From Selenomonadaceae bacterium (lineage in GTDB: Bacteria > Bacillota > Negativicutes > Selenomonadales > Selenomonadaceae), in NCBI GenBank assembly GCA_017535925.1, contig JAFXTD010000028.1, positions 17,229 through 81,228 of the forward strand: a DNA stretch of 64,000 nt, read 5' to 3'. Numbering within the stretch: the first letter of the stretch is position 1; each line of letters begins with the position of its first letter. Shown here piece by piece: positions 8,332-55,032 of this stretch. Position numbers and translations under genes: made by a program. Below the pieces are notes generated by a model. That model ran no database searches, had not been told where the DNA came from, and was given only the letters and a program-made list of their open reading frames with translations.

Positions 8332-8492
8332 GGAGCATGTTGGTAAGTTTTCTTCTGCTTTTCTTTTGAAAGTTTTCTTCTACTTTTTCTTTGCCGGCAC
8401 CAAAGAAAAAGTAGCAAAAAGAAAGGTGCTTTAACCGGCTGTAAAAACATCCTGTTTTTAACGCCGGCGGCCGTCATCCGTGACGGCCGGGC
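8332..8492 (-). repeat. multi-hairpin MITE-like element, partial copy (right TIR present, left end missing)
   Basis: Reverse complement aligns to 54860-55032. All three hairpins are present (GGCCGTCACGGATGACGGCC, AAAAACAGGATGTTTTT, CTACTTTTTCTTTGG..CAAAGAAAAAGTAG), plus a TIR-like GGAGCATGTTGGTAAGTT at 8332-8349. Confidence 0.7.
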
Positions 8493-8511
8493 TTTTTGCT
8501 GTATGAAGTTT

Positions 8512-8886
8512 TTAAAAAGTTTGCACGACCTCGAAGGCGTTTTCAATGTGATTAATTTCTTCGACAAGCTCGCCGCGCAGATAAACTTCCACAACGTCAA
8601 AGCGGCAGGCGCACTCGGAAAAATTTTCGTCTTGCAAGAAAACGCCGGCTGCCTCGATAATTTTTTTCTGCTTGCGAACGGTGACCGCCTCACTCGGCAA
8701 GCCGTGACGAATATCCGAACGCGCCTTGACTTCGACAAAAACAATCACGTTATCTTTCTGCGCGATTATGTCAATCTCCGCCGAACGAATCCGAAAATTT
8801 CTTGCGACGATTTTATAACCTTCCGACTCAAGAAAATTCGCCGAGCAATCTTCACCGAACTTGCCGAAAATTTTTTGACGGCTCAC
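8512..8886 (-). CDS. yraN: YraN family (UPF0102) endonuclease-like protein
   Basis: 124 aa; GEDCSANFLESEGYKIVARNFR...EIDIIA...VFVEVKAR signature. GTG start overlaps the upstream stop (GTGA). Confidence 0.85.
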   Translation of the reverse strand: MSRQKIFGKFGEDCSANFLESEGYKIVARNFRIRSAEIDIIAQKDNVIVFVEVKARSDIRHGLPSEAVTVRKQKKIIEAAGVFLQDENFSECACRFDVVEVYLRGELVEEINHIENAFEVVQTF

Positions 8887-9395
8887 AATTCGGCAACGAC
8901 CTCACTAAGCGGGCGACGGTCTTCGTGGCGATTGGAAGGCTTTGCACCTTCGGCGGGATAACCAATCGGGAAGACGGCGATTAATTCATAATCCTGCATT
9001 TCGGGGAAAAGCTCTTTGAGTTTGGGCGCGTCGAAGTAGCCGACCCAAGTCGTGCCGAGCCCCTCGTCTTGCACAGCCAACATCAAATGCGTTGCGACAA
9101 TCGCCGCGTCAATCTCCGAAAAATTTTTGTTGTCGAACGGTCTGTCGAAGGCTCCGTCTTTGTGCGCTCCTACGACGAATGCCAATGCCGCACCGAACGT
9201 GTAATTTGTTGTCTGCTTGAGTTTGTCGAGGGCTTCGGGCGATTTGAGTGCCCAGATAGTGTAGCGTTGAAGATTTTTCGCCGTCGGTGCCGCTATCGCC
9301 GCCTGCAAGATGTGTTCGATTTTTTCCGGCTCAATCGGCTTGTCCGTCAACTTCCTGCACGAATAACGCGCCTTTGCCAATTCCAAGAAACTCAT
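8883..9395 (-). CDS. nitroreductase family protein
   Basis: Start at MSFLELAKARYSCRKL (ATG 9395, behind AAAGGAGA). Nitroreductase fold signature. Confidence 0.8.
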   Translation of the reverse strand: MSFLELAKARYSCRKLTDKPIEPEKIEHILQAAIAAPTAKNLQRYTIWALKSPEALDKLKQTTNYTFGAALAFVVGAHKDGAFDRPFDNKNFSEIDAAIVATHLMLAVQDEGLGTTWVGYFDAPKLKELFPEMQDYELIAVFPIGYPAEGAKPSNRHEDRRPLSEVVAEL

Positions 9396-9481
9396 TTCAA
9401 AATCTCCTTTCAAAAATGTATATGTCAGCAGATTAACAGTTGTCAGCTCCCTTACTGCTACCCTGCCAACCTGATAAAATT

Positions 9482-10348
9482 TTAAGCCGGCAAATGCATT
9501 TCACGAGCCTGTTCGCGCAAGTGAGCAATGCGGTCGTCGGTATCGGGGTGCGTCGAAAATAAATTCTTCAAAGTTTTTTTCGAGTTCTCAAGCGGATTGA
9601 CAATGAACATGTGAGCGGTTGCAGTTCCGGCTTGAGGCATGGGCGCGCTGTGTTGAGCGTAGTATTCGATTTTTTCAAGGGCGTTTGCAAGATACATCGG
9701 GTTGCCGCAAATTTCGCCGCCGGTTTTGTCAGCGTCGTATTCCCTCGAACGAGACACGGCAAGTTGAATCAGCGAGGCAGCAATCGGCGCGAGAATTATC
9801 GTTGCCAAAAGACCGATAATCCCTCCGTTGTCGTCGTCGGAACGCGTGCCGAAAATCGCGCCCCATTGAACGATATTTGCAACCATCGAAATGACGCCCG
9901 CCATCGAGGCAGCGATTGTCCCGATTAAAATATCCCTGTGCTTGACGTGCGCCAATTCGTGACCAAGCACGCCGGAAATTTCGTTGTAGTCGAGAACTTT
10001 CATTATGCCGGTCGTGACTGCAACCGCCGCATGGTCGGGGTTCCTGCCCGTCGCGAAAGCATTGGGAACTTCGGAATCAATCACGTAGACGCGAGGCATC
10101 GGCAAGTTCGCCTTCTGCGCGAGCTTTGAAACAATTTCATAGAGTTGCGGTGCATCTTTATCCGAGACTTCGCGGGCGTTGTAACTTTTGAGGACAATCG
10201 AATCGCTGAACCAGTAACTGAAAAAATTCATGCCGATCGCAATCACGAGCATAATCATTGCCCAAGTCGAGCCGCCAATCATTCCTCCGACGGCAACCAT
10301 CAAGCCCGTCAGCAACGCCATAAGTAAAAAGGTTTTGAAAATGTTCAT
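9482..10348 (-). CDS. htpX: membrane zinc protease HtpX (M48)
   Basis: Start at MNIFKTF (ATG 10348, behind GGAGG). TM helices; HELAHVKHRD HExxH motif. Confidence 0.9.
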   Translation of the reverse strand: MNIFKTFLLMALLTGLMVAVGGMIGGSTWAMIMLVIAIGMNFFSYWFSDSIVLKSYNAREVSDKDAPQLYEIVSKLAQKANLPMPRVYVIDSEVPNAFATGRNPDHAAVAVTTGIMKVLDYNEISGVLGHELAHVKHRDILIGTIAASMAGVISMVANIVQWGAIFGTRSDDDNGGIIGLLATIILAPIAASLIQLAVSRSREYDADKTGGEICGNPMYLANALEKIEYYAQHSAPMPQAGTATAHMFIVNPLENSKKTLKNLFSTHPDTDDRIAHLREQAREMHLPA

Positions 10349-10496
10349 GCTGAAACCTCCTATCATGCAGATTATAAAAGCGATTCGATTTTTCGGCAAG
10401 ACTTAAGGATATTTTTAATTGACAGTGCGGCGAGTGCATGTTAATCTTTTCGCGTAACCTTTGAATCTCTTCGACAATCTGAAAGGGTGATTTGCA

Positions 10497-11039: not shown

Positions 11040-12266
11040 TTATGCTTGAGCACTCTCGACAAACCGCCAATGATAGCCGCCGGCTGTTCGATTAATTTCC
11101 TTGCAAGCTCGACGAATATGCGTATCTCTAATTTTGAGATAACGTGCCGCTTCATTTATCGACTCGTAAATTTTGTCGGTCTCAATGCAAATCACAGGTT
11201 TTTTCGTTGAATTCTTTTCGGAAAGTTTGGCTCTGTGTTCGTCACTCAAATGCCGCGCAGTCGTCGAAGAATTTTCTTCCGCTGTTTTGTCCGTATACTT
11301 CCAACGAAGACCGCCCGCCGTTTGAATAATTTTTTTGCAGGCTTTGGTTATGGAACTGCGGAGAATTTTATGAACACGTTCCGCTTCCGAAAGACTTTCG
11401 AAAATTTCACCCGTATCAATGCATGTAACGCGGCGAGATTTTGTCGTCTTGCCGTGAATTTTTTTTTCTGTATCGATTTTAACTTCCGTTGCTTCGTCGG
11501 GCTTATCGACAAACCGCCAATGATAGCCCGCCGCTGTCCGTTCGGGATTTTTGCAAGCATTTGAAATCCCCGTTCGATTTTTAAGATTATGAGCACGAGC
11601 TGCCGCTGTCAATGATTCAAATATTTCTTTTGTCTCAACGCAAATGACGGCTTGTTTATCTTTAGTTTCGGTGTCGTCTGCAAATTTCCAGTGAAAGCCG
11701 CCGGTAGTCTTGCGTTTATTTTGGCATACGCGATGAATACTTTGAAGACTGAGATTATTATGACGCGCCGCCTCCGTTACCGAATCATAAATTATTCCCG
11801 TTTCTATACATATCACTTTACGTTTATTCGGAATCACAGCAGATAAATGAGCTTTTTCTTCTTCCGTGAGCGGTCTGCCGGGTTTGCCTGTTAAACTTTG
11901 CGCGATAAGGTCTTTTGACTCGTTGCTGTGTTTCATACCGAAACGAGTCATTTTTGTGACGCTTTCGGGAGTTCGTTCCCAACCGCCTTCGCCGCCGTCA
12001 GTGTTATTGTAGCCGTTCGGCCAGCGGGTGCCGCGTGATTTAATGAAATGTCTTTCCCAACAGTTGAGCTCCTCTTGGCTTTCACAAACTTTCAAAATCG
12101 CCGTAGAAAAATTTTCTGCACCGTGTTTGCGAATCGCTCTGCCGATGTTCGACGTTTTGCAACGTTTGTGCTCTTTGAAGCGTTCCTCGACAGTTTGCGT
12201 CGTCTGCCCGACATATTCCTTGTCGTTTGTTCCGTCGATTAGCAGATAAATTACTCCGAATGCCAT
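11040..12266 (-). CDS. free-standing GIY-YIG homing-endonuclease-like protein with NUMOD3-like and four tandem HTH-like DNA-binding modules
   Basis: N-terminal GVIYLL...YVGQT...R..EH...E...N GIY-YIG core. NUMOD3-like KHSNESKDLIAQSLTGK / LSDEHRAKLSEK. Four ~50-aa repeats of the form V.CIETG.I[YF][ED]S..EAAR......I..ACK...[RK]TAGG[YF]HW[RK][FY]. Confidence 0.85.
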   Translation of the reverse strand: MAFGVIYLLIDGTNDKEYVGQTTQTVEERFKEHKRCKTSNIGRAIRKHGAENFSTAILKVCESQEELNCWERHFIKSRGTRWPNGYNNTDGGEGGWERTPESVTKMTRFGMKHSNESKDLIAQSLTGKPGRPLTEEEKAHLSAVIPNKRKVICIETGIIYDSVTEAARHNNLSLQSIHRVCQNKRKTTGGFHWKFADDTETKDKQAVICVETKEIFESLTAAARAHNLKNRTGISNACKNPERTAAGYHWRFVDKPDEATEVKIDTEKKIHGKTTKSRRVTCIDTGEIFESLSEAERVHKILRSSITKACKKIIQTAGGLRWKYTDKTAEENSSTTARHLSDEHRAKLSEKNSTKKPVICIETDKIYESINEAARYLKIRDTHIRRACKEINRTAGGYHWRFVESAQA

Positions 12267-12530: not shown

Positions 12531-12624
12531 GGAGTGGTACTCAAGCTTGGTGACGAGGCCTCACTGCTAATGAGGTAGGCTGCATAAAAGCGGCGCGGAG
12601 GTTCAAATCCTCTCCACTCCGCCA
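12531..12624 (+). tRNA. tRNA-Ser (anticodon GCT)
   Basis: Acceptor GGAGTGG/CCACTCC; anticodon stem CCTCA/TGAGG with loop CTGCTAA; long variable arm; T arm GGAGGTTCAAATCCTCT; encoded CCA. Confidence 0.93.
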
Positions 12625-13948: not shown

Positions 13949-13975
13949 AGCCCGTTGATAAATTTATTTGCAGAT

Positions 13976-14104
13976 GTGAGCGAAAACCCGGCCGCACAAT
14001 TTAGTGATTAGTGATTAGCTGTTAGCGGTTAGCTGTTAGAATTCTAATCACTGACCACTGACCACTTTAATTGGACAAGCAAAGAAAAAGTAGAAGAAAC
14101 TTTT
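13976..14104. repeat. chimeric repeat: MITE left fragment + heptamer array + MITE right fragment
   Basis: 13976-13998 GTGAGCGAAAACCCGGCCGCACA matches the element's left part. 14001-14066 is TTAGTGA x2, TTAGCTG, TTAGCGG, TTAGCTG, loop, CTAATCA CTGACCA CTGACCA. 14077-14104 GCAAAGAAAAAGTAGAAGAAACTTTT matches the 3' half of hairpin 3. Confidence 0.7.
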
Positions 14105-15325: not shown

Positions 15326-15402
15326 GTGACTTGGGACTGTCAGCTTTCAGCTACTGGAATTTTTTCTGACACCTTTAAAATCAATTTACCAACAGCTCTG
15401 GA
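15326..15402. repeat. MITE-derived fragment (heptamer-like TCAGCTT TCAGCTA block plus solo right TIR)
   Basis: TCAGCTTTCAGCTNNNGGAATTTTTTCTGACA recurs at 53540-53572. AATTTACCAACAGCTCT (15383-15399) matches the right TIR of 54824-55032. Confidence 0.6.
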
Positions 15403-17187: not shown

Positions 17188-17388
17188 AGCAATAACCTCA
17201 TTTCTTTACTTGTTACCATTTTTATATTGCAATCAAAAGCAATTTATTTCAAGTACGCAGTTTTTTCTGCCTTGACTTTAATGTCTGTCGATAAATTCGG
17301 AAAGCAGCGGTGAGAAAAAACCATGACACCCGACCGCTAAATTTGCGTCAAAACATTTGACATATCACTTGACAATCTATAAAATATC

Positions 17389-19607: not shown

Positions 19608-20399
19608 TTGCGAATTTTAATGGTCGGTGATGTTGTCGGGAAACCCGGCAGATATTTTTTTATGGAGCAAACGCCCGAACTCAAACAAATTCACAAAATC
19701 GATATGGTCGTTGTCAACGGCGAGAACGCGGCTCACGGCAAAGGTTTGACGCCGAATATTTTTGACGAGCTGATTCGCGGCGGCGCGGACGTCGTGACAA
19801 CAGGCAATCACATTTGGGACAATCCCAAAGTTTTGGAAATTATCGACACGGAACCTTTCCTGTTGCGCCCCGCAAATTATCCCGAAGACACGCCCGGCAG
19901 AGGCTTTTGCATTTTTCCCGTCGGCAAGAAAAAAGTCGGCGTGATTAACATGGCGGGAAGAACTTTCATGCAACCGCCAATGGACGACCCTTTCCGCCTC
20001 GCCGAAAAAATTTTGAACTTTATCGAAAAAGATTGCGACGTGATTTTGGTTGACTTCCACGCGGAGGCGACCAGCGAAAAACTTGCCTTTGCCAATTACC
20101 TCGACGGACGAGTTACGGCGGTTGTCGGAACACATACTCATGTTCAAACGGCAGACGAAAAAATTTTGCCGAAAGGCACCGCCTATATCAGCGATTTGGG
20201 CATGGTCGGCGCGGAGAATTCGATATTGGGCATGACGATTGAGCCCGTGATAAAAAGATTCGTGACGGGGCGACCGAGCAAATTTGATGTTGCCGAAGGA
20301 GCCGCCGTGTATTGCGCCGTGCTGATAGACACAGACAACAAAACGAACAAAGCAACCAAAATCAAAAGACTGCTTATCAAAGACAATCCTCATCGTTGA
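19608..20399 (+). CDS. ymdB: YmdB-like metallophosphoesterase (2',3'-cyclic-nucleotide phosphodiesterase family, TIGR00282)
   Basis: LRILMVGDVVGKPGR...VVVNGENAAHGKG...TTGNHIWD. TTG start assumed. Confidence 0.88.
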   Translation: MRILMVGDVVGKPGRYFFMEQTPELKQIHKIDMVVVNGENAAHGKGLTPNIFDELIRGGADVVTTGNHIWDNPKVLEIIDTEPFLLRPANYPEDTPGRGFCIFPVGKKKVGVINMAGRTFMQPPMDDPFRLAEKILNFIEKDCDVILVDFHAEATSEKLAFANYLDGRVTAVVGTHTHVQTADEKILPKGTAYISDLGMVGAENSILGMTIEPVIKRFVTGRPSKFDVAEGAAVYCAVLIDTDNKTNKATKIKRLLIKDNPHR

Positions 20400-20408
20400 C
20401 GAATTTTA

Positions 20409-20551
20409 GGAGCCGTCACGGACGACGGCTCCTCACGCCGCACTGAAACAGGATGTTTCTGCGGCGCGCCCCTGCGAGGTGCCCTTTCTTTTTGCTACTT
20501 TTTCTTTGGGCACGCAAAGAAAAAGTAGAAGACACTTGCAAAAGAAAAACC
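20409..20551 (+). repeat. multi-hairpin MITE-like element, internal copy without TIRs
   Basis: GGAGCCGTCACGGACGACGGCTCC, GAAACAGGATGTTTC, CTACTTTTTCTTTGGGCACGCAAAGAAAAAGTAG. Shares the CGAGGTGCCCTTTC variant with the 33186-33412 copy. Confidence 0.7.
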
Positions 20552-27840: not shown

Positions 27841-27928
27841 AATTCCCAATTTAGTGGTTAGTGATTAGTGGTTAGTGGTTAGAAAAACAATTCCCAATTC
27901 CCAATTCCCAATTCCTAATTCCTAATTC
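27841..27928. repeat. two adjacent non-complementary heptamer arrays
   Basis: TAGTGGT TAGTGAT TAGTGGT TAGTGGT, then AATTCCC x3 and AATTCCT x2. Confidence 0.8.
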
Positions 27929-27962
27929 AAAAAAAAACACCCCGACAATTTCTGTCGAGGTG
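27929..27962 (-). terminator. rho-independent terminator of the giant gene
   Basis: Minus strand CACCTCGACA-GAAAT-TGTCGGGGTG followed by T9, preceded by a second hairpin GAGCCG..CGGCTC. Confidence 0.7.
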
Positions 27963-33185: not shown

Positions 33186-33412
33186 CTGTCGTGATTCGAA
33201 TTTCCTCACTTCGATTTAACGGTTAATGAGTTTTAGTTTATTGAAAAACTTTTTCTTTGCATGCCCAAAGAAAAAGTTACAAAAAGAAAGGGCACCTCGC
33301 GGGGGCGTTCGTCGTTCATGATTCGGAGGTTGAGGTTACCCGCAACCGCTCGTCCCGCAAAAAAAACATCCATGTTTTTGTTGCGGGGGAGCCGTCATCC
33401 ATGACGGCTCCA
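33186..33412 (-). repeat. multi-hairpin MITE-like element, copy with internal insertion and degenerate ends
   Basis: The reverse complement has GGAGCCGTCATGGATGACGGCTCC, AAAAACATGGATGTTTTTT, an extra ~45-nt segment, a hairpin-3 variant, and the TCAATAAACTAAAA / CGTTAAATCGAAGTGAGG right-arm similarity. Confidence 0.6.
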
Positions 33413-38173: not shown

Positions 38174-38179
38174 ACCCAA

Positions 38180-42475: not shown

Positions 42476-42507
42476 CCCGTCGTTCGGATTGAGCGGCGGG
42501 TTTTTTT
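42476..42507 (+). terminator. rho-independent terminator
   Basis: CCCGTCG...CGGCGGG stem followed by T7. Confidence 0.6.
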
Positions 42508-42584
42508 AGTGGTTAGCTGTTAGTGGTTAGCTGTTAGAAAAATATTTTCCCTAACCGCTAGCCACTAATCACTAACCACTAATC
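42507..42584. repeat. tandem heptanucleotide repeat hairpin
   Basis: TAGTGGT TAGCTGT TAGTGGT TAGCTGT - loop - CTAACCG CTAGCCA CTAATCA CTAACCA CTAATC. The last unit contains the efp stop codon. Confidence 0.8.
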
Positions 42585-43140
42585 AAGCGCGTTCGATGTA
42601 AGAGCCGGTGCGTGTGTCGATTCTCAAAACGTCGCCTTCATTTATAAAGAGCGGAACACGAACGACGTAGCCCGTTTCAAGCGTGGCGTTTTTGGTCGCG
42701 CCGGTAGCAGTGTTGCCTTTGACGGCAGGTTCGCATTCGGTGACTTTGAGTTCGACGCTGTTGGGCAAGTTCACGCCGATAATGCGCCCCTTGAACGTCT
42801 GCAGATTGACTTCCATATTTTCCATGAGGTAGTTGAGTGCACTGCCGAGTTGTTCTTTGTTGAGTTCAATCTGTTCGTAAGTCTCAACGTCCATGAAAGT
42901 GTATTGCCCGTCTGATTCGTAGAGGAATTGCATTTTTGCGGTATCAAGACGAGCGGGCGGCATCTTTTCATTCGGGTTGAAAGTTCTTTCGACGACCGCG
43001 CCCGTCTCAACGTTTTTAATTTTCGTGCGGACAAACGCCGCGCCTTTGCCGGGCTTGACGTGTTGGAACTCGACGACTTGCCAAGCCATGCCGTCAATCT
43101 CAATCGTTAATCCCGTTCTGAAATCGGTACTTGAAATCAT
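42583..43140 (-). CDS. efp: translation elongation factor P
   Basis: 185 aa; [17 protein letters not shown]...[13 protein letters not shown]. Confidence 0.96.
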
Positions 43141-43225: not shown

Positions 43226-43672
43226 TCACCAATGATACGGTTCGTGCCGATTGATTTTGAACGCCCGATAAATTTGTTCAAGCAGAATCAATCGCGTCAT
43301 TTGATGAGTGAAAGTCATTTCCGACAAAGATAATCGGAAGGACGCTGCCCGCCGAAGTTCCTCGCTCAAGCCGAACGCCCCTCCGATTGCAAATGTCAAG
43401 TTACTCACTCCGCTCAAATTCAGCACGGAAATTTTTTTTGCGAAGTCTTCCGAAGACAAAGCCTCGCCCGAAACGTCAAGCACGCAGAGCCAAGAATCTT
43501 TCGGGACAAGTGCCAAAAGTTTTTGTCCTTCCTCCTCGACGGTGCGGCATTCGGAAATTTCGCGGACTTCAATCGTTAAAAATTTTTTTAAGCGTTTAAG
43601 ATATTCCGCGACGCCTTCGACCAAAAATTTTTCTTTGAGCTTGCCGACGACAATCAAATTTATTCTAACCAC
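43226..43672 (-). CDS. rlmH: 23S rRNA (pseudouridine1915-N3)-methyltransferase RlmH
   Basis: SPOUT fold; IVVGKLKEKF...FAIGGAFG...THQMTRLILLEQIYRAF. The GTG start lies inside a heptamer unit. Confidence 0.9.
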   Translation of the reverse strand: MVRINLIVVGKLKEKFLVEGVAEYLKRLKKFLTIEVREISECRTVEEEGQKLLALVPKDSWLCVLDVSGEALSSEDFAKKISVLNLSGVSNLTFAIGGAFGLSEELRRAASFRLSLSEMTFTHQMTRLILLEQIYRAFKINRHEPYHW

Positions 43673-43723
43673 TAATCACTAACCACTAATCACTAACAGC
43701 TAACAGCTAACAGCTAATCACTG
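43665..43723. repeat. one-armed heptamer array filling the htrA-rlmH spacer
   Basis: CTAACCA CTAATCA CTAACCA CTAATCA CTAACAG x3 CTAATCA. No complementary arm. Confidence 0.85.
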
Positions 43724-44875
43724 ATTCGACGGTTGAGGCATTTCTTCCAAAGTGACTTCGACAGTCTCTTGCTTGCCTTCTCTGTCACAAAGAACAGTGA
43801 CTTTATCGCCGACCTTGTGCGCCGCGACCTCGTTACGAACGTCAGTAACCGAATTGACTTCCTTGCCGTCGATGCTCAAGATAATGTCACCGCGTTGGAA
43901 GCCTGCGCGACCGGCGGGCGAATCGATTGCAACTTGGAAAACATAAACGCCCTTGTCAATCGACAGCTGATAACCGTAGCGAGCGGCAGTGGGCGGGTCA
44001 AAAATCGTGACGCCGAGATAAGGACGCGCAACGTAGCCTTTATCCATGAGCTCCTTAATAATCGTCTTGACGGTGTTAATCGGAATGGCAAAGCCCATGC
44101 CTTCGACGCCGTTTGTTGCAAGCTTCGCGCTGTTGATTCCGATAACTTCACCGTCAGCGTTGACGAGTGCGCCGCCCGAATTGCCGGGACTTATCGCCGC
44201 GTCTGTCTGAAGAAGTTTAACGCGCCTGTCGTTGAGGTCAAGTGTCCTGTTCAATGCACTGATAACACCGACCGTCACGGAGCCTTGAAATTCCAAGCCC
44301 ATAGGGTTGCCGATAGCGATTGCAGGTTCACCGACAACGACTTCATCCGAATCGCCCAGTTCGGCGACGGGCAAGTCTTTGGCGTCGACTTTCACAACCG
44401 CAATATCTGTCATTTCGTCCGTGCCAATCAAAGTGCCGTTAATCGTGTTGCCGTCAGAGAGCGAAACGATAATTTCCTTTGCGCCGGCGATAACGTGATT
44501 GTTCGTGATAATGTAGCCGTCGCTCTTGAAGATAACGCCGCTGCCCACGCCCGAAGTCTCAAACGTCCTGTCGAAGAAGTCGCGGGCGATAGCTTTATTG
44601 GTTATGCCGACGACTGCAGGGCCGACAGTCCGAGCCACGCGCACGGCGGGAGTATTTCTCGCGTCGGAAATTTTTGCATTGCTTTCGGGCTGATTGACGG
44701 TTTTGGGAGCCGCCTCCGTGTGTGCAGTTTGAGTTACCGATGCCGATTTCTCGACTGCCGCTTTGTCACCCTCGTCGGAACTTTCCATTCCCGTCAAGCC
44801 GCTGCAACCGCTCAACGTCAACGCCGCTGCCACTGCCGCCGCACAAATTATCTTGGTAAATTTTTTCGACCTCAT
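43718..44875 (-). CDS. htrA: HtrA/DegP-family serine protease with PDZ domain
   Basis: Lipoprotein-like signal (LSGCSG); TNNHV, GNSGGALVN catalytic motifs; C-terminal PDZ. Confidence 0.92.
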   Translation of the reverse strand: MRSKKFTKIICAAAVAAALTLSGCSGLTGMESSDEGDKAAVEKSASVTQTAHTEAAPKTVNQPESNAKISDARNTPAVRVARTVGPAVVGITNKAIARDFFDRTFETSGVGSGVIFKSDGYIITNNHVIAGAKEIIVSLSDGNTINGTLIGTDEMTDIAVVKVDAKDLPVAELGDSDEVVVGEPAIAIGNPMGLEFQGSVTVGVISALNRTLDLNDRRVKLLQTDAAISPGNSGGALVNADGEVIGINSAKLATNGVEGMGFAIPINTVKTIIKELMDKGYVARPYLGVTIFDPPTAARYGYQLSIDKGVYVFQVAIDSPAGRAGFQRGDIILSIDGKEVNSVTDVRNEVAAHKVGDKVTVLCDREGKQETVEVTLEEMPQPSNQ

Positions 44876-44981: not shown

Positions 44982-45129
44982 TTTTTTGCAAACAAAAATA
45001 CCTCGCGAAACTTTCTTGCGAGGTTTGAAAATGCTTGAAGGCGGTTCAGCCCCTCGTGTATGAGAAAATTACTACAAAGGTACTACGTTCAGTCGCTTAG
45101 CCGAGTCAGGGCTTAGGCGGCTGTTTTGC

Positions 45130-45288
45130 TTAGGTCGTGTTGATGAATCTAAAAGCAACGGTGAGTGAAAGCCCGGCCGTCACGGACGACGGCCGCCGGC
45201 GTTAAAAACATGGATGTTTTTATAGCCGGACTAACGCCCTTTTCTTTTGCTACTTTTCTTTTGGGCGCAACAAAAGAAAAGTAGAAAG
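45130..45288 (+). repeat. multi-hairpin MITE-like element, copy with degenerate left TIR and truncated right end
   Basis: TTAGGTCGTGTTGATGAATCT (compare TTAGGGGCTGTTGGTAAATTC), GGCCGTCACGGACGACGGCC, AAAAACATGGATGTTTTT, CTACTTTTCTTTTGGGCGCAACAAAAGAAAAGTAG. Confidence 0.7.
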
Positions 45289-45375
45289 AATTTTTCTTCT
45301 TGAGTGCGCGGGAAAATGTGTTATAATAAATCAGCTTTAAGCAACGGAATGGATTTTGTTAGGGAGGGACACATC

Positions 45376-46152
45376 ATGGCGAACACGATTAATCCAAATT
45401 TTTTCAGAGCTTATCAAACGGCGGGACAATTCAGCAAACCGACGACCTCTTCCGCCAAGACAAACAAGATTGAATCCGAGAAAAATCTTTTGGAAAGTTT
45501 CGGAGCAAATGCCAACGTCGAATTCAGCGAAGCCGGCTTGAGTGCCATGAAGTTGCAAAGCGATAACGTCGACGAAGAGGCAGGCGGTGCCGTCAAGTCC
45601 GACGAGCAGAAACTTTCACCCAAAGCGCAGAGCTATCTTGAAAACCTTCGCAAGAAATACGGCGATTATAATTTCGTCGTCTCAAATGACATGGACACTT
45701 CCAAGACGCTCGGCAGCGACAAAGAGTATTCGGTCATGTTCACGACGGAAGAGCTTGAAAAGATGGCGGAAGACGACGAATACGCCGAAAAAGTCATGGG
45801 GCAAGTCGGAAATGCCGTCGACATGCTCAAAAATATTTTGGAAAAAGATTTGGGCGAAGGCGTTCAATTCTCTCAACTGGGCGTCTCAATCGACAGCGAA
45901 GGCAACATGACTCTCTTTGCGCAACTTGAAAAACTTTCCGCCGAACAAAAAGAACGTTTCGAGGCAGCCAAAGAGAAACGCGCCGAAGAACAAAAGAATA
46001 CCGACAAGAGCCTCGACGACATGCCGCCCGAAGAAAGCACGAGTATTCTTTTCAAGAGTGCGGACGTTGAGGCGTCAACCGAAGAAGAATTGTTCGCCAA
46101 GATTTTCGGTATCAACTGGGATGACATTCCCGAAGAGGAAGCTCTCATCTGA
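45376..46152 (+). CDS. hypothetical acidic protein
   Basis: Start at MANTINPNFF (behind GGGAGGG). Glu/Asp/Lys-rich; no family recognised. Confidence 0.55.
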   Translation: MANTINPNFFRAYQTAGQFSKPTTSSAKTNKIESEKNLLESFGANANVEFSEAGLSAMKLQSDNVDEEAGGAVKSDEQKLSPKAQSYLENLRKKYGDYNFVVSNDMDTSKTLGSDKEYSVMFTTEELEKMAEDDEYAEKVMGQVGNAVDMLKNILEKDLGEGVQFSQLGVSIDSEGNMTLFAQLEKLSAEQKERFEAAKEKRAEEQKNTDKSLDDMPPEESTSILFKSADVEASTEEELFAKIFGINWDDIPEEEALI

Positions 46153-46240
46153 AACACTTTGAATCAAAAAAAATCCCCGCTTCATTTACGAGGCGGGGAT
46201 AATTTTTTTCGGGGTTACGGTAAAAGGTTCAGAGAATTTA

Positions 46241-47374
46241 TCAGAGGTTGTTCTTGATAAGCGCAAAGAGTTTGGAATAGGACGTGACGCCCGTGAAGTG
46301 AGTTATCGCGGCGTCAATGCCGTTCGCCTTGATGAAGTCTTGAACTTCGACGGCTTCCTTGTCCTCGACGTAATCAAACTTGAGAGCGGCGGCGATAACC
46401 TTAGCCAAAGCAACGGGAGTTTTGCCGCGTTCAATCAGTTGCATTGCCGGACTTACCAGACGATCTCCGGCGGAAAGTTTTCTCTTCGGGCCGCGAGCCA
46501 CACGAGTAACTTCATCGCTGATTTCGGGATTCTTGAAACGCGTTTCCGTCGTCATGACGTATTTTTGATGAACGGCGGGATCGAAATTGTATTTGTCAAT
46601 CAACAGCGCGGAAGTTTCAGCCCACACTGCACGAGCCGCCGCAACAATATCCTCGTCGCGCATGGCGGAGCTTATATCGGGCAAGCCTTTTTGATAGGCG
46701 AGGTAAGCAATCGAGGCGTGTCCCGTGTTGACCGTGAAAAGTTTGCGTTCAATGTATGCGCCGAGGTTGTCGACGAGCGTCATGCCTTTAATCGCAGGCA
46801 GTTCACCGACGACGCCTTTGGAATCAACGTCCCATTCGGCGTAGGGCTCGACCTTGACCAAAAGTTTTTCGTAATTCTTCTGGAGCGGGACAATTCTGTC
46901 GACAGCGGCGTCGGGGAAGCCGATAAGCTTTTGGACTTCGGGCTTAACGTCGTCCGCAAGATTTTCATAGACGAAATTTTTCAGCACGGTCGAGCCGCCG
47001 ACCATGTTTTCGCAAGCGATGATATTGAGCGGCGTCTTGTTCGTCGCAACGCGTTTGGTTAACCCTTTGGCGATATTCGGCGCGATGAATTTTAAAATGT
47101 TCGGACCGATAGCCGTCGTGATGATGTCCGCCTCAACAATCGCGTCGAGGAGCGCGTCAAGGTTTTCGTTGCTGTTAATCGCGCTGACGTTTTCGACAAG
47201 AGTTTTTTCAGCCTCGCCGAAGATTTGAACGTTGTACTTGCCCAGTTCGTTAATGTCATTGACGAGCGGGGCGGCAACGTCAACAAAGCTCACGTGATAG
47301 CTCGCTTGACTTAAAAGCAAACCGATAAAGCCGCGCCCGATATTGCCTGCGCCGAAGTGTACAGCCTTTTTCAT
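46241..47374 (-). CDS. mtlD: mannitol-1-phosphate 5-dehydrogenase
   Basis: Start at MKKAVHFGAGNIGRGFIG (behind AGGAGG). Full-length MtlD-like. Confidence 0.93.
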   Translation of the reverse strand: MKKAVHFGAGNIGRGFIGLLLSQASYHVSFVDVAAPLVNDINELGKYNVQIFGEAEKTLVENVSAINSNENLDALLDAIVEADIITTAIGPNILKFIAPNIAKGLTKRVATNKTPLNIIACENMVGGSTVLKNFVYENLADDVKPEVQKLIGFPDAAVDRIVPLQKNYEKLLVKVEPYAEWDVDSKGVVGELPAIKGMTLVDNLGAYIERKLFTVNTGHASIAYLAYQKGLPDISSAMRDEDIVAAARAVWAETSALLIDKYNFDPAVHQKYVMTTETRFKNPEISDEVTRVARGPKRKLSAGDRLVSPAMQLIERGKTPVALAKVIAAALKFDYVEDKEAVEVQDFIKANGIDAAITHFTGVTSYSKLFALIKNNL

Positions 47375-47400
47375 GTCGTTACCTCCTGTTGTCAGGTTAT

Positions 47401-47623
47401 TAGGGGCTGTTGGTAAATTCGAAAAGCAGCGGGTAGCGAGTGCCCGGCCGCACACGGACGTGCGGCCGCCGCGACTTAAAACCTGGAAGGTTTTATAGCG
47501 GACAAACGCCCTTTTCTTTTGCTACTTTTCTTTTGGGCGTAGCAAAAGAAAAGTAGATTCAATAAACAAAATTCATTGCAACGTTCAATCGAAGCCGACT
47601 ATTTAATTTACCAACAACCCCTA
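47401..47623 (+). mobile_element. complete MITE-like element (19-bp TIRs, flanking GGTTAT duplication)
   Basis: Left TAGGGGCTGTTGGTAAATT versus the reverse complement of the right end, TAGGGGTTGTTGGTAAATT. GGTTAT at 47395-47400 and 47624-47629. Internal hairpins GGCCGCACACGGACGTGCGGCC, AAAACCTGGAAGGTTTT, CTACTTTTCTTTTGGGCGTAGCAAAAGAAAAGTAG. Confidence 0.75.
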
Positions 47624-47655
47624 GGTTATTAGAATTTTATTTCTTTACTACTAAC

Positions 47656-48168
47656 CTACTTAAGTTTTGCAAAAAATTTTTCGTCGACGGGTTCCAACCA
47701 ATCCGTTGAAACTTCCGAGCTTGCCTGCATGATTGAAAGATGTTGCATCATTTTTCCGGGAGCCGCGCCGTGCCAATGCTTGACGCCTTCGGGAACGGTG
47801 AAGACGACGCCGGGTATCAGCTTAACGGGTTCTTGTCCCCAGATTTGAACGTAGCCCGCGCCGGACTCTGCCACGAGAATTTGACAGGTGCCGTGGTGAA
47901 TGTGCCAGAAGGTGTGCGCGCCGTCAATGAAGGTGACGTTTGCGACGTTGATTGAGTCTTTGGTTGAAAGCGGCGCAAGATAAGTTTGACCCGTGAAATA
48001 TTTTTCGTAGTTGACGTTCGGATTGCCAATCGGGAAAATGACGCCTTCGGTCTCGGTGAGCTTTTGTATAACCTCCGCCTCCGAAGGATAATCCGTCGCT
48101 TGAGCCGTCATACCGAATGTTAAGCACGCCGCCGCCAATGTTGCCAAAAATTTTTTGTACGAAATCAT
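47656..48168 (-). CDS. secreted cupin-domain protein
   Basis: Start at MISYKKFLATL (6 nt after AGGTG). Signal peptide; cupin_2 motifs (HTFWHIHHG...GVKHWHG). Confidence 0.75.
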   Translation of the reverse strand: MISYKKFLATLAAACLTFGMTAQATDYPSEAEVIQKLTETEGVIFPIGNPNVNYEKYFTGQTYLAPLSTKDSINVANVTFIDGAHTFWHIHHGTCQILVAESGAGYVQIWGQEPVKLIPGVVFTVPEGVKHWHGAAPGKMMQHLSIMQASSEVSTDWLEPVDEKFFAKLK

Positions 48169-48183: not shown

Positions 48184-48246
48184 AAGGAACCGGGAACGAG
48201 GAACAAGTTTTTACAATTCCTAATTCCTCATTCCTAATTCCTAATT
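48184..48246. repeat. heptamer array
   Basis: AAGGAAC CGGGAAC GAGGAAC - loop - AATTCCT AATTCCT CATTCCT AATTCCT AATT. The right block is the reverse complement of 50167-50192 and of 54790-54823. Confidence 0.8.
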
Positions 48247-48250
48247 AACC

Positions 48251-50140: not shown

Positions 50141-50166
50141 GGATAACACCTCCAAAAAATCAATGT

Positions 50167-50218
50167 GGAATTAGGAATGAGGAATTGGGAATCGGGAAAA
50201 CGAATTTAATTCCTAATT
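50167..50218. repeat. heptamer array
   Basis: GGAATTA GGAATGA GGAATTG GGAATCG GGAAAAC .. TTCCTAATT. Confidence 0.8.
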
Positions 50219-53472: not shown

Positions 53473-53494
53473 AATCATCTCAAATAAATTTTAT

Positions 53495-53526: not shown

Positions 53527-53536
53527 GTTGCGCCAT

Positions 53537-53596
53537 GTTCAGCTTTCAGCTGTAAGAATTTTTTCTAACAGCTAACCACTAACAGCTGACCGCTAA
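53537..53596. repeat. heptamer array / repeat shared with 15340-15372
   Basis: GTTCAGC TTTCAGC TGTAAG - AATTTTTT - CTAACAG CTAACCA CTAACAG CTGACCG CTAA. Confidence 0.75.
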
Positions 53597-53651
53597 ATTC
53601 ATTGACGAAACCAAAAAATTTTGCTAAAGTTTGCTTTGAGGTGATGAAAAT

Positions 53652-54734
53652 ATGCGTAAAAAAATTTTGGCAGCGATAACTGCGGGTTTGATAGCTTTTG
53701 CGCCGTTTACAGCTGTCGATGCCATGCCCCGCGACCAAATTGCCAAAATTCAAGTCAAGAAGGCGAAGGATTTCAAGTATTGGACTAAAGGCTCGGTTGC
53801 GAATCAAAAATTGGTCGAATATGTAACCGACGTGACGAACAAGAAGAGCAAAAATTTTATTCCCGTCGAGGACAGGTACGCGGTTTTCGACATGGACGGA
53901 ACTTTTATCGGCGAGAGCATGCCGTGCTATTTCGAGTGGATGCTTTATCTTGAACGCGCCCTTCACGACCCCGATTATACGCCGTCAGCCGAAGATTTGG
54001 AGTATGCAAAAATGGTTGACGCCGAAATTAAAGCGGGACACTTCATGACGGGCAAATTTCCCAAAGGAATCGACTTGGGCGAGGCAAAATCTCAACAATC
54101 GGTTTTCGCAGGCATGACGCCGAAAGATTACGAGGCTTACGTCCGCAAATTCATGAATAAACCCGTCGAAGGTCTCACGAATTTAAAATGGGGCGAAGCA
54201 TTTTATTTGCCGATGGTCGAAGTCATAAAATACTTGCAGGCGAATGACTTCAAAGTTTATATCGTCACGGGCAGCGACCGTCCCGCAATGCGCGTCATGG
54301 GTTCGGAACTTTTGAAAATCCCGTATGACAATGTAATCGGCACGAACCCGCAGATAATTGCGGCTCATCAAGGCGACGTTTCGGCGGACAACTACGCATA
54401 TCGCCACGACGATTATCTGATTCGCGGCGGACTCACTCAAAAGAACTTGAAAATGAACAAAGTCGTTGCTATCGAACACGAAATCGGCAAGCAACCTGTT
54501 TTGGCGTTCGGGAACAGCGGCGGCGACACTTCCATGCTCAATTACGCGATAACCGGCAACAAATACAAAAGTTTGGCGTTTTTTGTCATCTGCGACGACA
54601 CGGAGCGCGAACTCGGCAACATTGACAAGGCGAACGGTTGCATTAAGCTTGCCGAAAAGAACGGCTGGATAAAAATTTCCATGCGCGACGACTTCAAGAC
54701 GATTTACGGCGACAACGTTAAGCGTTCGAAATAA
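53652..54734 (+). CDS. secreted HAD-superfamily hydrolase
   Basis: Signal peptide; DxDxT motif FDMDGT; TGSDR and GNSGGD motifs. Confidence 0.8.
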   Translation: MRKKILAAITAGLIAFAPFTAVDAMPRDQIAKIQVKKAKDFKYWTKGSVANQKLVEYVTDVTNKKSKNFIPVEDRYAVFDMDGTFIGESMPCYFEWMLYLERALHDPDYTPSAEDLEYAKMVDAEIKAGHFMTGKFPKGIDLGEAKSQQSVFAGMTPKDYEAYVRKFMNKPVEGLTNLKWGEAFYLPMVEVIKYLQANDFKVYIVTGSDRPAMRVMGSELLKIPYDNVIGTNPQIIAAHQGDVSADNYAYRHDDYLIRGGLTQKNLKMNKVVAIEHEIGKQPVLAFGNSGGDTSMLNYAITGNKYKSLAFFVICDDTERELGNIDKANGCIKLAEKNGWIKISMRDDFKTIYGDNVKRSK

Positions 54735-54752
54735 AATTTGGCAAAAAAATCA

Positions 54753-54788
54753 GGGCTTGACTCCGAAAAAGAGTTAAGCCCGTTTTTT
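54753..54788 (+). terminator. rho-independent terminator
   Basis: 11-bp stem GGGCTTGACTC/GAGTTAAGCCC followed by T6. Confidence 0.8.
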
Positions 54789-54789
54789 C

Positions 54790-54823
54790 AATTAGGAATT
54801 AGGAATGAGGAATTAGGGGCTGT
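54790..54823. repeat. heptamer array interrupted by the MITE (continues at 55033-55045)
   Basis: AATTAGG AATTAGG AATGAGG AAT | element | GGAATGG GGAATG. Confidence 0.8.
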
Positions 54824-55032
54824 TGGTAAATTAAAAAGTAGCGGTTGGCGAGTGCCCGGCCGTCATGGATGACGGCCGCCGGCGATATGAACAGGATGTT
54901 CATCCGCCGGGTTAAGCACCTTTCTTTTTGCTACTTTTTCTTTGGTGCCGGCAAAGAAAAAGTAGATTCAATAAACAAAAGTTATTGAGACGCTTAATCG
55001 GTGCCGACGTTTTAATTTACCAACACGCTCTA
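54824..55032 (+). mobile_element. complete MITE-like element (19-bp TIRs, flanking GGAAT duplication)
   Basis: Left TAGGGGCTGTTGGTAAATT; the right end AATTTACCAACACGCTCTA matches in 16 of 19 positions as an inverted repeat. GGAAT at 54819-54823 and 55033-55037. Hairpins GGCCGTCATGGATGACGGCC, ATGAACAGGATGTTCAT, CTACTTTTTCTTTGGTGCCGGCAAAGAAAAAGTAG, TCAATAAACAAAAGTTATTGA. Confidence 0.75.

Follow-up and report, generated by a model that had tools for sequence, protein, structure and literature searches.

TwoAYGGAY-type repeats with a candidate triple-helix pseudoknot in a Selenomonadaceae genome

TwoAYGGAY repeats (RF01731; Weinberg, 2010) consist of a pair of neighbouring hairpins, each with an AYGGAY loop, that share a common or basal stem. 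Rfam places them in clan CL00106 with CsrB and RsmX/Y/Z, and Gardner and Eldai (2014) proposed that they bind CsrA. A preprint of September 2026 (bioRxiv 10.64898/2026.09.22.753630) describes in Pseudomonadota an extended form, multicopy and mobile-like, with a 3' pseudoknot, flanking short tandem repeats, divergent doublets and large swings in copy number; Bacillota copies generally lack the extension, and its text mentions no triple helix. The telomerase RNAs of human and K. lactis have an H-type pseudoknot whose U-rich loop 1 occupies the major groove of stem 2, with consecutive U·A-U triples (in yeast C+·G-C too) and a third strand that runs the same way as the purine strand; this triplex is required for reverse-transcriptase catalysis (PMC13541005). 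MALAT1 and the ENE class have about 9-10 U·A-U triples broken by a C+·G-C triple, for which a single transcript supplies the A-rich strand and both U-rich ones, and ENE-type elements are present in plant and fungal transposable-element RNAs (PMC13541005). Bacterial MITEs (Correia, ERIC, BIME/REP; IS630-derived) are small, ORF-less DNA elements with inverted ends, many intergenic copies and presence or absence between relatives. Correia and IS630-type MITEs have TA at both borders.

We have analyzed a stretch of 64,000 nucleotides (the window) of a Selenomonadaceae bacterium, where a family of multi-hairpin repeats had been predicted. These elements (~170-225 bp) are a Bacillota (Selenomonadales) branch of the TwoAYGGAY repeats and no new family. 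Their hairpins H1 and H2 make up the double hairpin of RF01731, with its AYGGAY loops, against the original prediction of a distinct sequence akin to Correia, ERIC or BIME elements. Unlike TwoAYGGAY proper, the window and Selenomonadales copies fall short of the RF01731 threshold; at locus L031, bona fide matches (48.8 and 56.7 bits) sit on the same layout of H1, H2 and pseudoknot, ~50-80 nt upstream of the pseudoknots. The elements have no known similarity to the consensus sequences of ERIC, REP or Correia.

The H3-stem pattern ACTTTYYYTTTGG-N4-7-CAAARRRAAAGT has exactly six matches in the window, one per predicted copy, over a chance expectation of 0.00 (100 shuffles of the window). A covariance model trained on 113 copies from many genomes recovered the same six (61-72 bits) and, on the sense strand of the window, nothing else above 12 bits; further copies were found in other genomes, so that the family is not restricted to the window. 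The four predicted fragments are also genuine, each showing parts of the element. The features are the following:

54814..55032, + strand: full-length copy, TA...TA inclusive (R1 pseudoknot match 62.4 bits), with TA 54814-54815 and AGGAATT 7-mers preceding the 5' arm
54816..54832, + strand: its 5' arm (basal stem and inverted end), GGGGCTGTTGGTAAATT
54857..54878, + strand: its H1, CGGCCGTC-ATGGAT-GACGGCCG, with AYGGAY loop
54880..54910, + strand: its H2, outer stem CCGGCG/CGCCGG, inner stem ATGAACA/TGTTCAT, apex GGA; helices 2-4 covary
54916..54919, + strand: its S1a, GCAC, 5' strand of the pseudoknot stem; partner S1b, GTGC, 54945-54948
54921..54929, + strand: its L1, TTTCTTTTT, which would run in parallel with the purine tract AAAGAAAAA (54953-54961) as a Hoogsteen third strand
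54931..54965, + strand: its H3, equal to S2: 5' strand CTACTTTTTCTTTG (54931-54944), S1b GTGC, L3 CGG, then CAAAGAAAAAGTAG (54952-54965)
55014..55030, + strand: its 3' arm (basal stem and inverted end), AATTTACCAACACGCTC
55031-55032, + strand: TA, then GGAATGG 7-mers 3' of the copy
47401..47623, + strand: full-length copy (covariance model 65.3 bits); arms 47403-47419 and 47605-47621, H1 47445-47468, H2 apex 47477-47495, S1a-L1 47507-47520, S2 47522-47556; triplex variant TTTTCTTTT / AAAAGAAAA
45137..45290, + strand: copy without 3' arm (61.8 bits); H1 45174-45195, H2 45203-45222, L1 45240-45248, S2 45250-45284
33186..33412, - strand: long-form copy (69.3 bits), with an extra ~55-nt domain between H2 and pseudoknot, a form common to 11 MAG copies; H1 33388-33411, H2 33362-33379, L1 33281-33289, S2 33246-33279 with distal pairs of the TAAC/GTT variant
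20382..20549, + strand: copy with borders from empty-site comparison (72.3 bits), taking the place of the last codon(s) of ymdB; H1 20408-20433, H2 20445-20459, L1 20485-20493, S2 20495-20528
8331..8497, - strand: copy between yraN-like and hexapeptide-transferase genes, sense (61.3 bits); H1 8468-8489, H2 8442-8460, L1 8416-8424, S2 8380-8414; of its ends only the 3' arm is kept, CTTACCAACA at 8337-8346
13962..14104 (predicted as 13976-14104), + strand: fragment with 5' arm, leader and, ending near 13992, the first half of H1; a 7-mer array splits this part from S1b/S2b and tail (14076-14104)
15380..15400 (within the predicted 15326-15402), + strand: solo 3' arm AATTTACCAACAGCTCT
17293..17345, + strand: 5' leader fragment, ATAAATTCGGAAAGCAGCGGTGAG...
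1969..2037, + strand: decayed fragment of H1 and the start of H2

Copy 54814..55032 folds as a single multi-branch structure closed by the basal stem (MFE -90.4 kcal/mol, z = -7.4), and the values for copy 47401 are similar (-89.1 kcal/mol, z = -6.2). From 5' to 3', the element comprises a ~17-bp basal stem, a leader, H1 and H2 with their AYGGAY/GGA loops, in some copies an insert domain, then an H-type pseudoknot (S1a, L1, S2a, S1b, L3, S2b) and a 3' hairpin.

Every stem of the element covaries. In a formal count over 17 copies of the short form, of which the window supplied 5 and Selenomonadales MAGs 12, 94.2% of cells were paired versus 82.5% in shuffles and the covariation score was 0.313 versus 0.122, values reached by 0 of 500 shuffles in both cases; two-sided changes affected 14 of the 29 pairs, and sliding the register cut pairing to 57% or less. 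H1, H2 and H3 stay paired through two-sided changes, as the prediction of compensatory stems had it. H1 appeared as described (GGCCGTCA-YGGA-TGACGGCC, with the variants GCAC/GTGC and GGAGCC/GGCTCC), with at least 15 distinct fully paired stems across Selenomonadales copies, and H3 agreed with its description. For H2, the variants ACA/TGT and ACC/GGT were found again but its extent had been understated: the hairpin is longer because its outer stem also covaries (CCGGCG/CGCCGG, CGCCGCA/TGCGGCG, CCCGCAA/TTGCGGG). This outer part, as well as the basal stem, had been passed over before. As for wobble pairs, alignment columns 30-63 show U·G (UA 52, UG 53) and no A·C mismatch, columns 27-66 show G·U in 56 cases, and G·U was counted in H2 five times among the 17 short-form copies. 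This G·U asymmetry and the kind of structure are our only grounds for taking the element to be probable RNA, read on this strand.

The bases that lie 5' of the U-rich tract are paired with the H3 loop, which makes an H-type pseudoknot. Its stem, S1, has 42 distinct helices. When 50 distinct combinations were examined in a fixed register, pairs 2-4 were paired in 92, 92 and 82%, with 4-6 pair types each, while 500 shuffles of the partners gave 41-49% and none reached the observed values. Besides, in all eight or so variants the U-rich tract L1 is a parallel copy of the H3 purine strand, which is the signature of a putative major-groove helix of U·A-U and C+·G-C triples. We checked this three-way covariation in 111 unique copies, with the tract upstream of H3 excluded from the search pattern. 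Among the copies with asymmetric purine tracts, 23 of 24 with AAAGAAAAA and 9 of 12 with AAAAAGAAA had the exact parallel pyrimidine tract, and none had the antiparallel one. Among four codes L1 always matches the S2b of its own copy, and 7 of the 9 lineage groups hold at least two variants, each with lineage-specific flanks. About 30 extra copies, found by the covariance model alone, with insertions confined to linkers, supply more concerted variants (AAAAGAGAA/TTTTCTCTT, AAAGAAAA/TTTCTTTT, AAAAGAAA/TTTTCTTT, AAAAAAA/TTTTTTT, AAAGAAA/TTTCTTT). The formal count gave CG 10 / UA 7 at one parallel position and UA 10 / CG 6 / UG 1 at the next, and any slide of the register lowered the L1/S2b match to about 75%.

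Judged by its three-way covariation, the most conserved part of the element looks like a triple helix of 8-9 layers within a pseudoknot. The U/C tract L1 would line the major groove of S2, a helix of 14 bp, and as many as 9 consecutive triples (U·A-U and C+·G-C) would form with the purine strand of S2, compared to 3-6 in telomerase, although the tight geometry (L3 of 2-3 nt across an S1 of 4-6 bp; L1-S2a linker of 1-3 nt) may accommodate just some of these 9 at once. Unlike telomerase RNA, the element is bacterial, multicopy and has neither a template region nor a known reverse transcriptase partner. Members of the ENE class use a U-rich internal loop to clamp the poly(A) tail or an A-rich tract at the 3' terminus, whereas here the A-rich strand is internal, in a classical pseudoknot closed by S1, with more structure 3' of it. 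We found no report in the literature of a triple-helix pseudoknot of this type in bacteria. The pseudoknot and its triple-helix covariation were absent from the original prediction.

Besides Selenomonadales, the pseudoknot module is found in Xanthomonadales, Burkholderiales, Pasteurellaceae, Bacteroidota, Oscillospiraceae and some viral contigs. Often no AYGGAY hairpins accompany it, in which it differs from TwoAYGGAY. This distribution across phyla had not been noted before; together with the pseudoknot and the triplex covariation, the module appears to have been missed earlier or to be new. The extended TwoAYGGAY of the preprint shares with our elements the multicopy, intergenic and mobile-like character, the variable copy number, the adjoining short tandem repeats and a 3' pseudoknot, which may be the same one. 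In the preprint the repeats are 5-6-mers at the 5' end, whereas we find 7-mers on both sides, and Bacillota copies generally lack the extension, whereas these have the pseudoknot. Divergent doublets, as in the preprint, are formed by the Proteobacteria relatives (25 in our loci), unlike the Selenomonadales elements, which are single.

We think it probable that the elements form a lineage of TwoAYGGAY-type repeats in Selenomonadales, and that selection acts on them as a folded single strand, most likely RNA, with a triplex pseudoknot. They would be small, ORF-less, multicopy intergenic modules, gained and lost, whose copies insert at TA sites as mobile DNA of a non-autonomous kind. The triplex pseudoknot would make a rigid, very stable knot, either as a shield of the transcript against exonucleases or helicases or as a handle for the machinery that propagates the element. 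That the elements behave like MITEs, as predicted, follows from their being multicopy, intergenic, ORF-less and variably present, with TA-flanked inverted ends. At the orthologous spacer between ymdB and the spoVS-like gene, the window and L124 carry the element and five related metagenome contigs lack it. The truncated copies and fragments also point to mobility. The inverted ends, of ~17 bp and flanked by TA in two window copies (47401 and 54814), read TAGGGG(C/T)TGTTGGTAAA...TTTACCAACA..CCCCTA, with a core kept in the window and in loci L034, L027, L080 and L026; the 5' arm GGGGCTGTTGGTAAATT recurs in copy 47401, L034, L027 and L080. When the element and one TA are taken out, the 7-mers fall back into register (copy 54814..55032 and L034), and in L027 the element occupies the central TA of a perfect palindrome.

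These ends, together with the empty sites, solo ends and truncated copies, are also what a pure DNA transposon derivative would leave, an IS630/Tc1-mariner-type MITE with TA duplication and no RNA role, whose hairpins and pyrimidine mirror repeat would act as DNA (cruciform, H-DNA or single strand during transposition). A homopyrimidine mirror repeat is the classic requirement for H-DNA, and L1, linker and S2a make a perfect one. However, H-DNA needs the mirror repeat only and leaves the covariation of S1 with the H3 loop, of H1 and of H2 unexplained, and the wobble is asymmetric, tolerating G·T and not A·C. Most copies, four of the six window copies among them, have lost one end or both but keep the internal structure intact, and the conserved core spans phyla while the ends do not. 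As predicted, the elements carry no ORF and the window no transposase: a Pfam scan of about 50 window ORFs found no transposase, integrase or reverse transcriptase, and no transposase with these ends was found in the window or in ~1.4 Mb of loci, where the sole ISL3 gene is unique to L003. At the ymdB site, the only one with empty-site controls, no target duplication is visible. We regard this reading as unlikely. A non-autonomous SINE-like retroelement, with the RNA as intermediate and the triplex pseudoknot as handle for a trans-acting reverse transcriptase, would agree with the missing duplication, with RNA-type constraints kept in a proliferating repeat, with the tandem duplications of the S2b strand in some copies and with the telomerase pseudoknot as closest structural analogue. 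This idea, modelled on telomerase RNA and the ncRNAs of defence-associated reverse transcriptases, is speculative and drawn by analogy alone; no reverse transcriptase gene was seen beside any copy, the element has neither a poly(A)-like nor a template-like tail, and inverted ends with TA flanks suit DNA transposition better. We consider it highly improbable.

The elements might instead act in cis on the mRNA of neighbouring operons, REP-like, as 3'-end or intercistronic stabilisers or as termination or attenuation signals. Very stable structures, as in REP and ENE, halt 3'-5' exonucleases. Four of the six window copies lie in sense immediately after or overlapping the stop codon of the preceding gene (yraN-like, ymdB, ygbA-like and HAD hydrolase), and copy 8331 is intercistronic, about 35 nt upstream of the next ribosome-binding site. 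Against this, copy 47401 is antisense to both its neighbours (mannitol dehydrogenase and a cupin protein), and orientation across 36 Selenomonadales copies is near random (upstream gene on the same strand 17, opposite 11, with a crude ORF caller). In the divergent doublets of Proteobacteria one member is always antisense to a through-transcript, the hairpins have no U-tail, and the five relatives without the element at the ymdB site indicate that it is dispensable there. We consider this function quite unlikely.

Returning to the folded RNA that we favour, its GGA loops could be bound by a CsrA-like protein. Like the CsrB/RsmX/Y/Z sponges, the element shows GGA motifs in hairpin loops, and the H2 apex ACAGGAUGU equals the CsrA SELEX consensus. 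Unlike those sponges, it has only 1-2 GGA loops and neither a terminator nor a recognisable promoter of its own; the best rsmX score was 13 bits. As a family-wide function CsrA binding is rejected, since many Selenomonadales H2 loops are GUGAU instead of GGA and pseudoknots occur without a GGA hairpin, which accompanies 0 of 26 in Polaromonas, 0 of 5 in Pasteurellaceae and 1 of 7 in Bacteroidota. The elements had also been thought to donate promoters or terminators. In the region scanned (45000-47800) neither was found inside its two copies, and the only good promoter-like site lies at 45300-45327, just outside copy 45137..45290.

The hairpin H3, the third of the hairpins H1, H2 and H3 that follow each other in the element, was used alone as a search pattern. 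It matched the window six times, once in each interval where a copy had been proposed, when shuffled sequences gave an expectation of 0.00. A covariance model of the pseudoknot (R1), built from 113 copies found in many genomes, retrieved the same six copies with 61–72 bits, and the rest of the sense strand gave at most 12 bits. None contains an ORF, and the density is six copies per 64 kb. The H1 loop was ACGGAT, ACGGAC or ATGGAT in all six, and the H2 loop varied as listed.

Element copies in the window, named by their start
8332, minus strand: H2 loop AGGAT
20409, plus strand: H2 loop AGGAT
33186, minus strand: H2 loop ATGGAT
45130, plus strand: H2 loop ATGGAT
47401-47623, plus strand: full-length, H2 loop TGGAA
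54814-55032, plus strand: copy 54824, full-length, H2 loop AGGAT

In related copies from metagenome-assembled genomes (MAGs) the H2 loop was frequently GUGAU, so that AYGGAY describes H2 only in part across the lineage. Reading the sequences confirmed the three hairpins with their stem variants, and added a covarying outer stem to H2; the four shorter fragments reported with them are genuine pieces of the element. The original prediction of compensatory stem changes was borne out by an alignment of 17 copies of the short form (5 window copies and 12 from Selenomonadales MAG loci), in which 94.2% of the stem cells were paired vs. 82.5% after shuffling (0/500 shuffles as high), 14 of the 29 stem pairs had changed on both sides, and the covariation score was 0.313 vs. 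0.122 for the shuffled set (0/500). Sliding the register lowered stem pairing to 57% or less. In the two full-length copies a basal stem of ca. 17 bp closes a single multi-branch structure, with folding z-scores of −6.2 (47401-47623) and −7.4 (54814-55032). This stem is absent or half-lost in the other four window copies, and its outer pairs are compensatory in L027, a locus from another genome.

The hairpin layout predicted originally was right but lacked a pseudoknot and the signature of a triple helix. In every copy H3 is directly preceded by two short sequences, first a G+C stretch (S1a) and then a tract of U and C (L1). The pairing partner of S1a is the H3 loop (GCAC/GTGC, GTGCC/GGCAC and CGCC/GGCG in the window), and the resulting order S1a, L1, S2a, S1b, L3, S2b, where S2 is the H3 helix and L3 the loop before S2b, is by its sequence that of a classical H-type pseudoknot. 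L1 has no usual antiparallel complement anywhere. What it reproduces, in parallel orientation and with U in place of A and C in place of G, is the H3 purine strand (TTTCTTTTT with AAAGAAAAA and TTTTCTTTT with AAAAGAAAA in the window), matching the rule for pyrimidine-motif major-groove triplexes (U·A-U, C+·G-C).

We searched the H3-only pattern in one genome per GTDB species and obtained at least 118 loci. Since the sequence upstream of H3 was outside the pattern, these loci are an unbiased test for L1. Among 111 unique copies in the matches listed, the exact parallel pyrimidine tract accompanied AAAGAAAAA in 23 of 24 cases and AAAAAGAAA in 9 of 12, and none of the copies with asymmetric tracts had the antiparallel version. 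The L1 code was always that of its own S2b, among four codes in the matches listed. At least two variants occur in seven of the nine lineage groups in these matches, on flanks specific to the lineage, and this speaks for L1/S2b codes having switched repeatedly and independently. About 30 additional copies among the matches listed, falling outside the pattern and retrieved by R1 only, had further concerted variants (AAAAGAGAA/TTTTCTCTT, AAAGAAAA/TTTCTTTT, AAAAGAAA/TTTTCTTT, AAAAAAA/TTTTTTT and AAAGAAA/TTTCTTT), with insertions confined to two linkers. At one parallel L1/S2b position the counts were CG 10 and UA 7, and at the next UA 10, CG 6 and UG 1; any register slide cut this pairing to ca. 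75%.

The S1 helix was supported by 42 distinct helices in the matches listed. It was scored by a fixed-register script, the MAFFT columns being unusable from the placement of gaps in the loop. Over 50 distinct combinations in this register, pairs 2–4 were paired in 92, 92 and 82%, with 4–6 pair types each, while shuffled partners paired in 41–49% and 0/500 shuffles reached the observed values. One register holds across lineages: S1a, one spacer nucleotide facing the closing G-C pair, and L1. By these sequences, the putative third strand reads as the parallel purine strand in a register fixed from the S1/S2 junction. Wobble pairs were strand-asymmetric (UA 52, UG 53 and A·C 0 at alignment columns 30-63; GU 56 at columns 27-66), an asymmetry that suggests one strand folding on itself in this polarity, most simply an RNA.

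From this three-way covariation we tentatively propose, with slightly less than even confidence, that the core of the superfamily is a natural bacterial helix of up to nine consecutive U·A-U/C+·G-C triples within an H-type pseudoknot, present in at least three phyla and also in (pro)phage-like contigs. Perhaps the nine triples do not all form simultaneously, because L3 (2–3 nt) and the L1-S2a linker (1–3 nt) are so short. The triple helix embedded in this pseudoknot seems to be new as a structural feature. The natural RNA triplexes of such length that we found described come from eukaryotes or viruses, and the accessible text of a 2026 review of RNA triplexes names the SAM-II riboswitch and a group II intron as the bacterial cases (PMC13541005). 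Element sequences gave zero Rfam matches to the SAM-II, SAM-V or preQ1-II riboswitches even at E <= 10. A triplex on the antisense strand was also discarded: the "convergent" Selenomonadales pairs were an artefact and the second purine strand breaks the mirror rule.

Two further details of the pseudoknot were observed. Some copies carry extra hairpins of 20–70 nt, placed precisely within the L1-S2a linker or where S2a meets S1b, positions consistent with pseudoknot loops. In several, S2b is followed at once by the purine strand repeated in direct orientation (e.g., GCAAAGAAAAAGTAGAAGAAAACCT then GCAAAGAAAAAGTAGA), a repeat that could supply S2 with another 3′ strand or could be slippage debris.

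Pseudoknots with an inserted hairpin (L-numbers are loci from other genomes or contigs)
L001 1347-1410
L099 4199-4262
L083 5621-5705
L005 4220-4353

Second purine strand
window 20515-20549
window 8350-8393
L030 ~2720-2760
L124 ~2620-2665

The loci with the H3 pattern came from Selenomonadales and Quinella rumen MAGs, Dyella, Rhodanobacter, Lysobacter, Steroidobacteraceae, Polaromonas, Acidovorax, Haemophilus, Lonepinella, Chitinophagaceae, Cytophagales and one Oscillospiraceae MAG. Hairpins with a GGA loop precede the pseudoknot in some of these lineages only, which makes the pseudoknot the common core and the AYGGAY hairpins a feature of particular lineages.

GGA-loop hairpin upstream of the pseudoknot, among the matches listed
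Selenomonadales: 28/34
Rhodanobacter / Lysobacter: 8/8
Dyella: 10/38
Polaromonas: 0/26
Pasteurellaceae: 0/5
Bacteroidota: 1/7

Five IMG/VR viral or prophage-like contigs (L201-L205) hold genuine pseudoknot copies in which L1 and S1 match, one of them (L202) with the complete H1-H2-pseudoknot layout, and contigs of this kind could carry copies from one lineage to another. In Pasteurellaceae, Polaromonas and Zhongshania a long hairpin, with a conserved GTCTGTYTGAGCGWAGCGAGTT in its loop, replaces the AYGGAY hairpins before the pseudoknot. In Steroidobacteraceae the pseudoknot begins right at the 3′ CCA end of a tRNA, or at a duplicate of a tRNA end, and S1a (CCAATC) contains the CCA; this start may be the border of an integration site.

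Long hairpin with the GTCTGTYTGAGCGWAGCGAGTT loop
L044 ~640-700
L071
L008/L046 ~870-930
L086 ~6630-6680

Pseudoknot at a tRNA end, Steroidobacteraceae
L035 1396-1523, minus strand
L024 ~6960-7041
L093 856-923

The repeat family originally predicted is real, and a more fitting description for it is a Bacillota variant within a superfamily of the TwoAYGGAY type (RF01731). This orphan motif, a double hairpin described in 2010, was only recently seen as hugely amplified and mobile-like. The assignment of the window element to TwoAYGGAY rests on architecture and not on model score, because neither the window nor 20 Selenomonadales loci had an RF01731 match at the gathering threshold (43 bits). At gathering thresholds Rfam found only RNase P and tRNA-Ser in the whole window, and the closest same-clan score on its elements was rsmX with 13.3 bits. 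Matches by E-value on single elements (rsmX, Flavo-1 with 17 bits antisense, and Bacillaceae-1 with 29.7 bits antisense in L016) were noise. A Pseudomaricurvus locus (L031) contains two double hairpins scoring 48.8 and 56.7 bits with RF01731, each located ca. 50–80 nt upstream of a pseudoknot of the same type, the pair forming a divergent doublet.

Extended TwoAYGGAY RNAs of Pseudomonadota were described on 24 September 2026 in a preprint whose accessible text reports up to 202 copies per genome, arrays of 5–6-nt repeats on the flanks, divergent doublets, and a mobile look of the RNAs, the Bacillota representatives being generally without the extension (10.64898/2026.09.22.753630). The 3′ pseudoknot of those RNAs may correspond to ours, and the same text makes no mention of triplex or Hoogsteen pairing. 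Arrays of 7-mers, and not of 5–6-mers, flank copy 54824 and interrupt the fragment at 13976. Divergent doublets numbered at least 25 in our Proteobacteria loci (pseudoknots 372–1693 bp apart, 24 of 25 at 372–723 bp), whereas there were none in Selenomonadales among the matches listed. A plasmid search aimed at Pseudomonas copies gave pseudoknot matches only from Pasteurella and Aeromonas, and a literature search by sequence words gave nothing relevant.

Evidence of mobility comes from the spacer between ymdB and a spoVS-like gene, where the window and L124 have elements of different subtypes at an identical junction while the site is empty in five related contigs (L122, L123, L125, L126 and L127). 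Presence and absence at an orthologous site is what is expected of a MITE. At 20376-20399 the element substitutes the last codon or codons of ymdB, the protein ending ..LLIKDNPHR* vs. ..IFIKP* in the relatives compared (L122-L127). The inverted-end motif is TAGGGGYTGTTGGTAAA; the two full-length copies have the ends GGGGCTGTTGGTAAATT and AATTTACCAACA..CCCC, with TA at both flanks. Such ends were found in two of the six window copies and in several MAG copies, and the same sequence doubles as the basal stem of the RNA. In copy 54824 and in L034 the 7-mer register is regained once the element and one TA are taken out, and in L027 a perfect palindrome holds the element at its central TA, all of which fits insertion at TA. 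No target duplication was visible at the ymdB site, the sole one with empty-site controls. On two ENA metagenome contigs with the same arrangement around mannitol dehydrogenase (exact protein) there was no empty site beside this gene. Coding regions of the window were 71–81% identical to Selenomonadales MAG loci.

As had been claimed, the window has no transposase (Pfam on ca. 50 ORFs); integrase and reverse transcriptase were likewise not found. Nor did we find an autonomous element with the same ends, either in the window or around the occurrences of the end motif in the fetched loci. An ISL3-family transposase gene lies between the halves of a divergent doublet in L003 (6227-7495, minus strand), its stop codon ca. 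15 nt from S1a. By tblastn this gene is unique to L003, indicating that an IS inserted into the element and that it is not the driver. The suggestion that the elements donate promoters or terminators was not supported, as neither was found inside the two copies scanned; a promoter-like site lies just outside copy 45130. We saw no convincing orientation bias relative to neighbouring genes with a crude ORF caller.

What sequence comparison establishes is the fold, through covariation, together with the conservation of the pseudoknot across phyla and gain or loss at one orthologous site. The triplex pseudoknot would be a very stable knot shielding the RNA from exonucleases or helicases or, alternatively, a handle for the machinery that propagates the element, and spread would occur via non-autonomous DNA transposition. 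In lineages having GGA loops, these might bind a CsrA-type protein, as proposed in 2014 for AYGGAY loops (PMC4333381). The element does not fit a Csr/Rsm sponge RNA, having one or two GGA loops and, in the two copies scanned, no internal promoter or terminator. A MITE acting only as DNA and using H-DNA would share the mirror-like tracts and the insertion pattern, but neither the G·U asymmetry nor the covariation seen in S1, H1 and H2 follows from it. A REP-like element of mRNAs and a SINE-like retroelement are the other rivals to an RNA-folding element spread by transposition.

If the triple helix is true, it would be the longest known in prokaryotes, an equivalent in bacteria to the triplexes of telomerase and MALAT1/ENE, and either a knot resistant to exonucleases and helicases or a recognition handle of the multiplying machinery. 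A bacterial triplex that occurs in thousands of natural sequence variants would be a valuable system for working out triplex rules and a candidate RNA-stability part for synthetic biology, and its signature a sharp and cheap experimental handle on the function and spread of the element. A Bacillota lineage with the pseudoknot, the pseudoknot rather than the AYGGAY hairpins as the part common across phyla, and the covariation signature of a long triplex all change how the family ought to be modelled and searched.

The window has other features. The 7-mer tandem arrays are many and form two families (AGGAATT / AGGAATG / GGGAATT and CTAACCA / CTAATCA / CTAACAG); they border or break some element copies and also border elements in the Selenomonadales MAGs L034 and L028. 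They may be the counterpart of the 5–6-mer arrays beside the Pseudomonas TwoAYGGAY elements, and we take them to resemble the STRR heptamers of cyanobacteria. Heterocystous cyanobacteria have STRR insertions in the RNase P RNA, whereas here the 7-mer arrays within this gene are in a Selenomonadales-like genome. The window also encodes flagellin, so the organism is probably flagellated.

7-mer arrays in the window
2871-2905, 3110-3197, 13993-14075, 27850-27941, 42505-42585, 43665-43724, 48201-48246
50152-50188, 53565-53596, 54780-54816, 55024-55045, 55409-55445, 57219-57306

Other features of the window
2907-3324, minus strand: RNase P RNA gene (Rfam 284 bits; 418 nt vs. the 367-nt model), with the internal 7-mer arrays at 3110-3197
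11040-12266, minus strand: free-standing GIY-YIG / NUMOD homing-endonuclease-like ORF adjoining tRNA-Ser(GCU) at 12531-12624, with internal repeats ca. 225 bp apart (11056-11108, 11290-11342, 11506-11558)
28026-32792, minus strand: ORF of 1588 aa with zero Pfam matches, directly downstream of copy 33186, in the G+C-richest region of the window (0.52–0.56) and with strongly negative AT skew
35279-40809: type III restriction-modification-like pair, a Res helicase/endonuclease and an N6/N4 methylase
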